Shown in pieces: positions 16,354 to 59,381 of a stretch of 64,000 bases of DNA. The stretch's first letter is position 1, and the number at the start of each line of letters is the position of its first letter. The DNA comes from Escherichia phage vB_EcoM_G2494. Under the pieces are notes generated by a model that saw nothing but the letters and a program-made list of their open reading frames with translations, ran no database searches and was not told the DNA's origin. Position numbers and translations under genes: made by a program. The DNA lies in sequence record MK327935.1. One strand, 5' to 3'.

Positions 16354-17830
16354 TTAAATGTCAAACAGGTCCGTAAGAGATGCCACTTTTTCATATTGCA
16401 GCTTTGCGGCCGTGGTAATGTTCTCCAGTGGTTTGACGAAAGTCTTATTAAACAACAAAGGCCAGTCTAACCACTTTAACACCTCTGATTCAATTTCTGG
16501 AGGAATACGAGTACCGGACAACCAACCAAAACAGATTTCTCCAAACGGATTTCGGTCTTTAAGCGGTACAATCATAACCTTCTCGCCCTCACGAATTGGA
16601 TCTAGTCCGAATTTTCGAGCATTACGATTATAACACAATACACTCTTAACCGCATACGGACAACCCTTAATCGGATACCCGTTTGAATCGCTGTATTTCT
16701 GTAGGTTGTTTGCAGATGATACCGCAGCAACCTCAAGATAGTCAAGTTTTCTAAACTCTTGCTCAAAAATACCGTAGTATTCCTGCAATGACTCTTCACC
16801 TTCCTGCAACATACGGCGAATACATTCTTTCAGTGATTTCTGACATGCTTTAGGGGTGGAGCTACGTTGCGTTTCCAAGCCCATGATTTTTAGCTTAGGT
16901 TCAGCAAAGCGCGTTCCTTCCATATCCCAAACATTAAGAGCATAACGCTTTTTACCCGTCCAGAATCCACCAATACCCGCAGATTTCAACGGGGGACCAG
17001 CAATTGCCTCTCGGTCCATAAACATCAAGTGCTCATAGTTGTTCATGTACTCGCATAACTCTCGATATCCTTTGTCGATAATCGGTTCCATTCGATGTTT
17101 ACCGAAATTATCAAGGAAGTCAACAAGTTTTTCGGTATCGTCGAAACGGTCTTCCCCGCCAACCTTATCAACAACATTGTTAACCAGCACATAAACGGAG
17201 TCAGTATCACAATAACGAACATATGCAAAATCGGTTGTTCCGCAAAGCTCGTTTAAGTATTCGTTAATCTTACGCTCAATCCACTGAATTGCAAGCTGAC
17301 CGAACAGTGTGATCGCACTAGCGTTACGGAGATCATAAAAACGGAATTTAGGATTCCCCAACGCACCATAAAGGGAGTTGATCAAAACTTTTCGAGAAAG
17401 CTGGTTTGTATTGCACAAGATCGACTCGTCTTTACATTCTTCCAGCAATTTCTCTAAGGCATCTTTACTTAATTCAGAAAGCATCGATTTAAACGCTTCA
17501 TCGAAGTCGTGACGCACTTCAACGCTATAGCTAATGGTTCCCCCATAAACATGATTTTCATCGTGTAGAATCGCTTTACATAGTTCAGCATTGCGATCAC
17601 ATGCCAACATCATGTTTTTGTACTGCTTACGCTGATCGAATACCTTTTTAATCTCAATCGGTACGATACCATGAATATCTTTTCTATACATCCATCCGTT
17701 AGGCGAGCAAGAATACTCATCACTCGGACGTGGTGCAGTTTTATTGATATACTCGTGCATCGGTGCAGCATCAAAAGATCCAGCGATTGTTTCCGGCGAA
17801 ATGTTAACCTGACGGATGATTGATGGATAC
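16354..17830 (-). CDS. 43: DNA polymerase gp43, 3' exon / C-terminal fragment
   Basis: Family-B motifs KVLINSLYGALG and YCDTDS; reading frame is open upstream of the listed Met back to YPSIIRQVNISPETI, the continuation of motif A. Confidence 0.85.
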
Positions 17831-18944
17831 CATTATGTTCAGCGCGGTTCGCTACTCCCGCGCCCGTTCTCTTGCGAACTGCTACATGTCACCATGTAGA
17901 TCAGACTATATCACATTCTCATAGAGAATCCTGCCATTTCGAATCGCTTGATTCTACTCTACTCGGTTCGTTACCCTTTCGATAGTCGTTGAACAACTGC
18001 ATCTTTAAGCTCATTTTGATCAAACGGTGTTCTCTTACAGTATCCGCTATAATTCTTAGCAAAAGGTTTCTTCTTACCAAAAATCTCTTTTCCTGAATTG
18101 TGTGCTTCAACAAGAAAATTCACCATTTCATCAAATGTGAAACTTGCAAATTTAGCATAAGTTTCATTACGTTTTGACATTATTTTACTCATAACTTCCG
18201 GTCGTTTAGACGCTGAATTTTCGCGTTTCTCGCCAGCATTAAATGATACCAACTCACCGGAAACATATCTAGGATCATCACAACTAACTCTAAACCGATT
18301 TCCTTCCTTATCCTTAACGATAACAGTATTCTTTAGCTTTTCTGCCATAGAATCAAGACCTTTTCGTATAGTGTCCTCATCAGCCCCGAAATATTTCTTT
18401 CCGCTCATATCGGTTCTGGCTTTTCCGGTCTTGTTTTCGGATATTTTCAGTCTAACTTCCTCTCGCTTGGCTGGGTTATTGTCTCCAGCGAATGCATCTT
18501 TGGTTAACGCCTTCACTTTATCGTCATAAGATCCTCTAGAGATGAAAGCATATGCTCTCTTGCATTCACCGTTATTGAATATTAAGCACAATAACCGATG
18601 CGCCTCGACGTGGTCTTCAAACTTAAGCCTAACAAGATTCCATTTATCTAACCGATATTCAGGGAACATTGACTTCGGGCATATATGATGCACCTCGGAA
18701 TATTCTTCACCCTGATACGGATTAGACACCAGTTTAATGTAGTCGTTTAATGCTTCCTCGTTATGTATTTCGTACTTTCTTAAAATGTCTTTCATCTCGC
18801 GCCTCCAATGTATATCAATATTTATATACATTATAAGACACGTTAGCTCAAAATGCAACTGCTGCTGATTGTCTCCTTAGAGATTTCCCAGCAATTAAGC
18901 AGGTTATTCGATCACTGTCACCAGTGAAAGCCCCATATCAGTTT
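17831..18944 (-). mobile_element. intervening sequence in gene 43: putative group I intron carrying an HNH homing endonuclease gene
   Basis: ~1.1 kb insertion between codons L and Y of motif A (DLTSL|YPS); 5' exon ends in T, insert ends in G; internal ORF has own late promoter; boundaries +/- a few nt. Confidence 0.6.
17971..18795 (-). CDS. HNH homing endonuclease (intron-encoded)
   Basis: Trimmed to MKDILRKYE... with GGAGG SD; His-Me finger motifs (EVHHICPKS...EDHVEAHRL); TATAAATA late-promoter motif ~20 nt upstream. Confidence 0.7.
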   Translation of the reverse strand: MKDILRKYEIHNEEALNDYIKLVSNPYQGEEYSEVHHICPKSMFPEYRLDKWNLVRLKFEDHVEAHRLLCLIFNNGECKRAYAFISRGSYDDKVKALTKDAFAGDNNPAKREEVRLKISENKTGKARTDMSGKKYFGADEDTIRKGLDSMAEKLKNTVIVKDKEGNRFRVSCDDPRYVSGELVSFNAGEKRENSASKRPEVMSKIMSKRNETYAKFASFTFDEMVNFLVEAHNSGKEIFGKKKPFAKNYSGYCKRTPFDQNELKDAVVQRLSKG

Positions 18945-20146
18945 AGGGAAGTAAGGTCAAAGCTCATCATCCAACGGTAAGCATTTGGCACAGGTTCTTT
19001 TACGAATGCGCCTGGATACGTCTGCTTAGGCTGTATCTTATTTTCCGGTACTACTTTACCCTCAGCTTTCAGAGATCCGAAGATAATAGCATCCCATACT
19101 TTCATCGGGTTATAAACATGGTTAAATTTAATCTTTGCATAGAAACATAGACTATACACAAGATCGATAAATCCACGCTTTTTATCAATCGCCAACACAC
19201 GATCAACGTCGCCGATGTTATAATCGATGTAAAGTTGATGGTTGTCATCACGCAATTTCTTTAACGGACCATCATAATCAACCTTACCGATTCCTGTCTC
19301 ATATTCAGCAACATAATCTAACGCATATGTTGGTTGAGTCGTAAAGCTAAATTTCTTGTACAGGTCAATATAATCAAGGCTTTCGATCCCCATGATCGTA
19401 AATGCTTCACGCTCGTTGCCAAAATCATCCTGTGAGATTCGGGATTTAATCTTACCGCACGGGCTTAGACGGTTAGCGGTTCTACTTCCGAACTTATTAC
19501 TGATACGTTTAATGATATATGGAATATCGAATGTTTCTGTGTTCCAGCCAGTGAAACCAACGGGTCGGTTTTCCTCAAAGAATCGGATGTATTCTAACAG
19601 CAATTCATCTTCTGTGTCATAGACGTTATAAACAACACGTTCTACAATATCTGGGCGAAGAATAGACTTGCTTGCTTCCCAAGATTCACCGTTTTTTCCT
19701 TTCAAATCAAATACAAAGAAACGATCATGTACGGAATCATAATGCGTAATTGCATCGATAGGATATTTCGCTTCTTCTGGTTTAGGAAATTCTGGGGCAG
19801 TGACCTCAATATCAACCCATGCTACACGGATTTTATTTCGGTCATATCGAATCTCTCCTTTATACGTATCGGACAGATAGGAGATGATAAAATCATCCAT
19901 CCCTAGTGCCTCTTGCCCCATCTCCCCCATCTTTTTACGCCATTTGTTGGCCTCGTTCATAGAGGGGAATTTTTTAGCAATGCAAGGCTTGCCATAGATA
20001 TCTTTATAATTCGTAACCATACCAGGCGCGGCATGATGAAATAAAGTTGGCGTATATTCAACGTAACGCTCTTGTTCTTGTCCAGCATCATCAATATAAC
20101 GCTCGTAGATCTTATCACCCACTCGCTCACATGACAGAAAATACAT
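18945..20146 (-). CDS. 43: DNA polymerase gp43, 5' exon / N-terminal fragment
   Basis: Collinear with T4 gp43 N-terminal and exonuclease domains up to MSFDLTSL; start set to ATG (MYFLSCERVGDKIYERYID) with GAAGGAG SD. Confidence 0.88.
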
Positions 20147-59162: not shown

Positions 59163-59381
59163 TTATTTATATCGCTTTCTCTCGCGACGTTTTTGATCTT
59201 CTTCCTTGATAGAGTTAAATGCATCAAAAAGACACATGAAACTAATAATAAACATAACCGTATTTTCTATGATATCCCACGGCTTCGCATCAGTACAGAT
59301 CCCCCAAACGGTAAGAAATGCAAATAGTGCAGAAGAGATCACAAGCATGATACTTGCTAAGATATAAAAAGTCATTTTCAT
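59163..59381 (-). CDS. small membrane protein
   Basis: 72 aa, two TM helices, basic C-terminus. Confidence 0.4.
   Translation of the reverse strand: MKMTFYILASIMLVISSALFAFLTVWGICTDAKPWDIIENTVMFIISFMCLFDAFNSIKEEDQKRRERKRYK

Follow-up and report, generated by a model that had tools for sequence, protein, structure and literature searches.

A putative mobile group I intron with an HNH homing endonuclease gene in motif A of the DNA polymerase gene of Escherichia phage vB_EcoM_G2494

Gene 43, encoding the DNA polymerase gp43, lies on the minus strand of the 64,000-nucleotide stretch of Escherichia phage vB_EcoM_G2494 (MK327935.1) analysed here (the window). The list of open reading frames and direct reading show that the gene is broken within PolB motif A, at a Leu|Tyr codon boundary (DxxSL|YPS). 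The first part, exon 1 (18945..20146, minus strand), holds the N-terminal 401 codons, has the same start as RB49 gene 43, and ends with ...FDLTS and the CU of a Leu codon. The second part, exon 2 (16354..17830, minus strand), begins with the G of this Leu codon and continues with YPSIIRQ... to the stop codon. Between them is an insert of 1,114 nt (17831..18944, minus strand), the putative group I intron, which begins AAACUG... and finishes ...AUAAUG with its terminal G at 17831. On the reverse complement the 5' boundary reads ...GAC CUU ACU UCC CU|A AAC UGA... and the 3' boundary, 1.1 kb downstream, reads ...AACAUAAUG|G UAU CCA UCA AUC AUC CGU CAG.... The final base of exon 1 is U18945 and the first base of exon 2 is G17830.

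A preliminary description of this DNA had reported that gp43 stops after ...MSFDLTSL and restarts at YPSIIRQ about 1.1 kb downstream, and both ends are confirmed at these coordinates on the minus strand. It had also proposed that joining the exon ending in U across an insert ending in G restores DLTSLYPS. This proposal holds: CU and G rebuild the Leu codon to give DLTSL-YPSIIRQ, and the joined exons (20146..18945 and 17830..16354) form an ORF of 2,679 nt that is colinear with the intronless gene 43 of RB49 and of equal length. The two genes differ at 57 nucleotides and only two amino acids. The ligated-exon junction predicted from the boundaries is ...ACUUCCCU|GUAUCCAUC (RNA ...UCCCU|GUAUCC...).

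In the unspliced DNA the N-terminal ORF terminates as ...MMSFDLTSLN* and an in-frame TAA is found two codons ahead of the Tyr codon. These reading frames bear on the possibility of an intein, or of some other insertion that is removed at the protein level after translation. A polymerase catalytic motif is a typical intein site. However, the exon-1 frame closes two codons inside the insert (CUA AAC UGA). The internal ORF begins with a start codon of its own, about 150 nt of non-coding ribozyme lie ahead of it, and no intein motifs were found. This reading was rejected as excluded by the reading frames, and we give it practically no weight.

A different possibility is that gene 43 is truly split into 43A and 43B by a free-standing HNH cassette, the two polypeptides assembling without RNA splicing. 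GenBank records do annotate two "DNA polymerase" CDSs and a separate ORF, and split gp43 is found in other T4-related phages (PMC2988022). Precedents are Aeromonas phages 44RR and 25, and Aeh1, in which nrdA is split by mobE. The C-terminal fragment, however, has neither an in-frame ATG, GTG or TTG nor a Shine-Dalgarno (SD) sequence between the break and ATG 17760, which is its first in-frame start, lies 23 codons downstream and itself lacks an SD. As the preliminary description had argued, there is no start codon ahead of YPS, so the Tyr would be missing from a separately translated fragment. A fragment from ATG 17760 would miss 23 codons (YPSIIRQVNISPETIAGSFDAAP), the motif A Tyr among them. 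These codons are under purifying selection. Their protein sequence is identical to that of RB49, and the first 19 encode the same amino acids as in contig L014 (19 of 19) despite 11 synonymous changes. In addition, a complete covarying ribozyme flanks the internal ORF and pairs with both exons through P1 and P10, as described below. We therefore regard a truly split gene as very unlikely.

All helices from P1 to P10 are located in the window copy, in canonical order with the P3/P7 pseudoknot, and each core helix is intact. The 5' half of the ribozyme (18854..18944, minus strand) was defined by manual reading and covariation. It contains the guide GAUAU (18939-18935), which forms P10 with GUAUC of exon 2 (five of five pairs in the window), followed by the guide GGGG (18934-18931), which forms P1 with UCCCU of exon 1, the splice-site pair being U·G. 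Then come P2 (18927-18912, UCACUG/CAGUGA), the 5' strand of P3 (18903-18899), P4 (18893-18888 with 18868-18863, UGCUGG/UCAGCA), P5 (18883-18872, UCUC/GAGA) and the 5' strand of P6 (18861-18854). P6 (CAGUUGCA/UGCAGUUG) encloses the endonuclease ORF and is closed by its 3' strand at 18001-17994. The 3' half (17831..18001, minus strand) is defined by an Rfam match, manual reading, covariation and its likeness to the T4 nrdB intron. It comprises P7 (17987-17983 with 17908-17904, GACUA/UAGUC), the P7.1 region between the 5' strand of P7 and the 3' strand of P3, P7.2 (17954-17941) between P7 and P3', the 3' strand of P3 (17934-17930, CCUGC/GCAGG), P8 (17929-17915, AUUCUC/GAGAAU), P9 (17899-17882), P9.1 (17879-17866) and P9.2 (17863-17842), all on the minus strand. 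The P7.1 region together with P7.2 is a signature of subgroup IA.

A scan with a group I covariance model gives a partial match. In a relaxed search Rfam RF00028 (Intron_gpI) matches the 3' half of the window copy (17882-18142, minus strand, 33.9 bits, E = 1.8e-6), near the consensus at J6/7-P7 (GUUCAACGACUA), P3', P8, J8/7-P7' (GAUAUAGUCUGAUCU) and P9. At the gathering threshold of 50 bits no match is obtained anywhere in the whole window, the intron copy included. The window copy scores below this threshold because the 825-bp ORF in P6 splits the core and the 5' half of the model is forced into the ORF. Homologues that lack the ORF or have lost it score 58.6-96.6 bits, above gathering. They include ACI2, one of the ten cores aligned below, and PC3, the form of the aligned LIMEstone-type intron from which the homing endonuclease gene (HEG) has been deleted.

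The fold is supported by covariation in an alignment of ten homologous cores, the window copy among them, in which the P6 loop was replaced by GAAA and the structure scored was the one derived from the window copy. Of the pair cells, 91.6% are paired, compared with 36-42% when the partners are slid by 1-3 columns. Compensatory changes on both sides occur in 43 of the 69 pairs, and none of 500 shuffles attains any of the five observed measures. P3 pairs fully (100%), each of its five pairs covarying, and P7 is invariant. P7.2 is likewise 100% paired (four of five pairs covarying), P7.1 varies little (95.8% paired), and P2, P8, P9.1 and P9.2 also covary heavily. The splice-site U·G pair and the intron-terminal G are present in all ten sequences. 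In the Acinetobacter homologue P1 has changed in a compensating manner to GGGU/GCCC, and P10 forms with four or five pairs in seven of the ten. Thus a full P1-P10 core is present, in line with the group I intron proposed in the preliminary description. Judged from its sequence, the insert is an IA-type group I intron of the T4 nrdB/td kind, with P7.1/P7.2. It comes closest to the nrdB intron of T4, and over 95 nt of the 3' core the two are about 80% identical. Under the customary definitions the subgroup would be IA2 rather than IA1.

The ORF in the P6 loop (17971..18795, minus strand; 825 bp) encodes a putative homing endonuclease of 274 amino acids with a Mob-like HNH N-terminal domain and NUMOD3-like repeats. 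The HNH motif is E34-x-H36-H37 ... N53 ... H62-x3-H66. Among 29 homologues there is no variation at E34, H36, H37, P40, H62 and H66, and almost none at N53. By its sequence this HH...N...H...H pattern is that of Mob-type HNH enzymes, and over its N-terminal 90 residues the protein is similar to homing endonucleases of the MobE type from T-even and other phages. PHROG 12434 matches the ORF at 5e-131, its name "HNH endonuclease" being an annotation only. A Pfam search with the ORF returned no HNH model and NUMOD3 alone (E = 0.31). Only spurious weak matches were obtained in a sequence search of the PDB, and Foldseek gave no structural match to the whole model. The earlier assignment of the ORF to the HNH endonucleases is thus upheld by the residues conserved among the homologues, with no Pfam HNH match.

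The last 16 codons of the ORF (17971-18018) overlap P6', J6/7, P7 and P7.1 of the ribozyme. The C-terminus AVVQRLSKG (codons GCA GUU GUU CAA CGA CUA UCG AAA GG) is strongly conserved across the family because these codons double as strands of P6', J6/7, P7 and P7.1. The overlap therefore implies a conflict between translation of the ORF and folding of the ribozyme.

The endonuclease gene also has its own expression signals, as had been proposed. A late-promoter motif TATAAATA (18826-18819) and the SD GGAGG (18806-18802) both lie ahead of the endonuclease ATG. They are part of a hairpin predicted to sequester the SD (18798..18842, minus strand), with the promoter motif in its 5' arm and loop. 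In the minimum-energy fold of an 81-nt read-through segment, GUGUCUUAUAAUGUAUAU pairs with AUAUACAUUGGAGGCGC and the SD is buried (-20.7 kcal/mol, z = -3.1), whereas in the predicted fold of a transcript beginning at 18813, just downstream of the promoter motif, it is free. The same hairpin and promoter design is found with different sequences in POP12 and contig L012. Most homologues retain TATAAATA at the same place, and those of Ackermannviridae retain CTAAATAC, labelled a late promoter in their annotation. The motif is no commoner than chance in the 64-kb window (three found, 5.8 expected by shuffling), the other two copies being at 48972-48979 and 59164-59171 (minus strand). Its weight comes from the conserved position across homologues, not from enrichment.

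This arrangement resembles that of the T4 td intron with I-TevI and of mobE, where a late-promoter motif is likewise combined with a hairpin over the endonuclease SD (the mobE hairpin as cited in PMC2988022). By analogy with these systems, the HEG would be silent in early read-through pre-mRNA and expressed late. The preliminary description had likened the insert to I-TevI. The likeness applies to the late-promoter and SD-hairpin design, but not to the enzyme, which is a Mob/I-TevIII-like HNH protein while I-TevI is a GIY-YIG enzyme.

The distribution of the insert among close relatives is patchy. The region is 99.3% identical to that of Escherichia phage kvi, and other Krischvirus (RB49-like) phages also match. 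Complete copies of the insert, their ORF intact, occur in eleven GenBank records (97.9-99.5% identity). In RB49 and about 50 other Krischvirus records the exon flanks alone match and gene 43 is uninterrupted, the candidate endonuclease target in RB49 gene 43 being …GACTTAACAAGTCTGTATCCATCAATC…. The same insert occurs in JSE, but there about 650 bp of the internal ORF have been deleted and TATAAATA reads TATAGATA. This JSE insert was described in 2010 as a putative group I intron (Petrov et al. 2010, Virol J, PMC2993671). The site and genus are the same and the retained parts are about 99.6% identical, but of the two copies that of the window has kept the ORF and TATAAATA. It is the intact and presumably ancestral form.

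The JSE copy demonstrates that this element does decay, with deletion of the HEG and alteration of the promoter motif. It might then be asked whether the window insert is itself a decayed relic unable to splice, or an assembly artefact, leaving a non-functional polymerase gene. In the window copy, however, the core helices are all intact, and 11 independently isolated and propagated phages carry the insert with the identity and intact ORF given above. Moreover, gp43 is essential in T4-type phages. A relic or artefact is accordingly most improbable, even more so than a truly split gene.

The exon next to the intron differs between the two kinds of allele. Six of the 57 substitutions between the whole gene and that of RB49 cluster within 11 nt upstream of the splice site, and all six are synonymous. 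This flank (18945..18956, minus strand) reads CTT ACT TCC CT in the two intron-carrying alleles (the window and JSE), and TTA ACA AGT CT in five intronless ones (RB49, KFS-EC, Makalu002, W115 and KMB43). The change from AGT to TCC is a switch between serine codon families. The changes create the exon strand of P1, UCCCU, and the intron-bearing PolB exons of other phages also end in (U/G)CCCU. Linked exon changes of this sort are consistent with donor exon sequence being co-converted in homing, with its retention for splicing, or with the two together. On the other side of the insertion site, the intronless Makalu002, W115 and KMB43 (L020, L021, L022) carry five to seven clustered synonymous substitutions within the first 30 nt. 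Relative to the intron-carrying exon 2, this stretch has one base difference in RB49 and none in KFS-EC. The clustered changes may represent endonuclease-resistant target variants.

When the intron by itself was used as the query, homologues at the same PolB codon junction were recovered from Pectobacterium phage POP12, Vibrio phage vB_VmeM-32 and Ackermannviridae, the last represented by LIMEstone1 (its ORF annotated as "putative intron I-LimII"), by allotria and by PC3 (ORF deleted). Seven metagenomic PolB contigs, retrieved through homologues of the endonuclease ORF, have the same insert between DNA_pol_B_exo1 and DNA_pol_B, at ...D-x-x-S/A-L|Y-P. In Vibrio phage vB_VmeM-32 (L010) the polymerase is annotated in at least five pieces, and the break in motif A is due to the same intron family. 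Related cores are found in other genes, namely the terminase region of Acinetobacter YMC13, the primase/helicase of A7_1, and the phiKZ-like phage SL2. Acinetobacter phage YMC13/03/R2096 has two tandem introns of this family without ORFs (L007:1342-1949; 78.8 and 96.6 bits in Rfam). Both are unannotated and lie immediately upstream of the CDS for the large terminase subunit, a gene that is probably mis-annotated.

A relative of the endonuclease (32% identical) is found free-standing at a different PolB position, behind CTAAATAC, in metagenome contig SRR33696486_8791 (L019:1000-2200). This insert has no group I core (the P7 motif is absent), and the polymerase there appears to be truly split into two ORFs. 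A free-standing relative in PolB without a ribozyme is a point in favour of the split-gene reading of the window, which we have taken into account in the judgement given above.

Among named elements, I-LimII of Dickeya phage LIMEstone1 and its counterparts in other Ackermannviridae share the position of the window intron. For LIMEstone1, Adriaenssens et al. 2012 (PMC3296691) list I-LimII as a putative intron of the polymerase. It interrupts the same junction (D-L-N-S-L|Y-P) with a homologous ribozyme showing compensatory changes, and its endonuclease is 35% identical over the full length (E = 5e-47). It belongs to another phage family, however, has a longer P7.1 and P8 and CTAAATAC instead of TATAAATA, and shares its polymerase gene with a second insert, I-LimIII. 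The latter lies about 500 nt downstream in LIMEstone1 and allotria (L005/L011:3088-3930), and its ORF runs on the opposite strand.

The nrdB intron of T4 and RB3 with I-TevIII shares with the window element an IA-type core with P7.1/P7.2 and an HNH-type ORF in a peripheral loop. The host gene is different (nrdB versus gene 43), and the likeness of the endonucleases here consists in the HNH motif. The nrdB intron occurs naturally as intact and deleted versions, and I-TevIII is truncated in T4 (PMC2993671). JSE and the window thus parallel T4 and RB3, with one HEG deleted or truncated and the other intact.

Another group I intron in a T4-type gene 43 is 25.g43B. The Aeromonas phages 25 and 44RR have a split 43A/43B. 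In contrast to the window element, 25.g43B occupies a different site (in the 43B cistron) and has no HEG of its own, and an untranslated spacer truly divides the gene (Petrov et al. 2010, J Mol Biol, as cited in PMC2993671 and PMC2988022). The introns encoding I-HmuI of SPO1, I-BasI of Bastille and I-PfoP3I of Pf-WMP3 (PMC3428280) similarly combine an IA-type intron with an HNH enzyme in the active-site region of a polymerase. Their hosts, however, are family A polymerases and their enzymes are nicking endonucleases (PMC3428280).

Taken together, these features very probably identify the insert as a mobile, self-splicing-type group I intron with its own HNH homing endonuclease gene in motif A of gp43. 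This was the proposal of the preliminary description, and the covariation of the core, the exact colinear excision and the presence/absence polymorphism at a fixed site among close relatives, with altered flanking exon sequence, all agree with it. In the gene 43 pre-mRNA, the guide 5'-GAUAU-GGGG-3' would form P10 with the downstream exon and P1, including the splice-site U·G, with the upstream one. The P3-P9 core would fold, and transesterification initiated by guanosine would excise the 1,114 nt, so that a single gp43 of 892 amino acids would be translated from the spliced mRNA. In early read-through transcripts the SD of the HEG would be locked in the hairpin. Late transcription from TATAAATA within the hairpin, by analogy with T4 I-TevI and mobE, would yield an RNA with a free SD and without the 5' half of the ribozyme. 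The endonuclease would then be made late and would cut or nick, with presumed specificity for it, the intronless gene 43 of a co-infecting relative, and repair would copy the intron with a short tract of donor exon into the recipient. In the literature searched, neither splicing nor endonuclease activity has been shown for any member of the PolB-site intron family.

A broader reading, which we favour by a small degree, is that one lineage of intron and HEG moved between phage families, always at the same motif A junction and with its own "UCCCU" exon tract. Its range would cover Straboviridae of E. coli, Pectobacterium and Vibrio, and Ackermannviridae of Dickeya, Salmonella and E. coli. The same reading adds two coupled switches, one being the SD hairpin with the late promoter and the other the overlap of ORF and ribozyme, which would make translation and folding mutually exclusive. 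A review in 2010 saw no convincing evidence of such elements crossing phage types.

The element is of an ordinary kind among selfish phage elements and was already noted in this phage genus in the decayed form of JSE, and the current understanding of group I introns is unchanged by it. For annotation, gp43 here and in at least 11 GenBank relatives should be one spliced CDS of 892 amino acids. Such records currently show two "DNA polymerase" fragments and a hypothetical protein. Two phage families carry this intron at an identical position in motif A, which is evidence of wide horizontal spread. Within the RB49 group, intronless phages, phages with the intact intron and HEG, and the HEG-deleted form make up a clean natural series that is usable for the study of homing, co-conversion and HEG decay.
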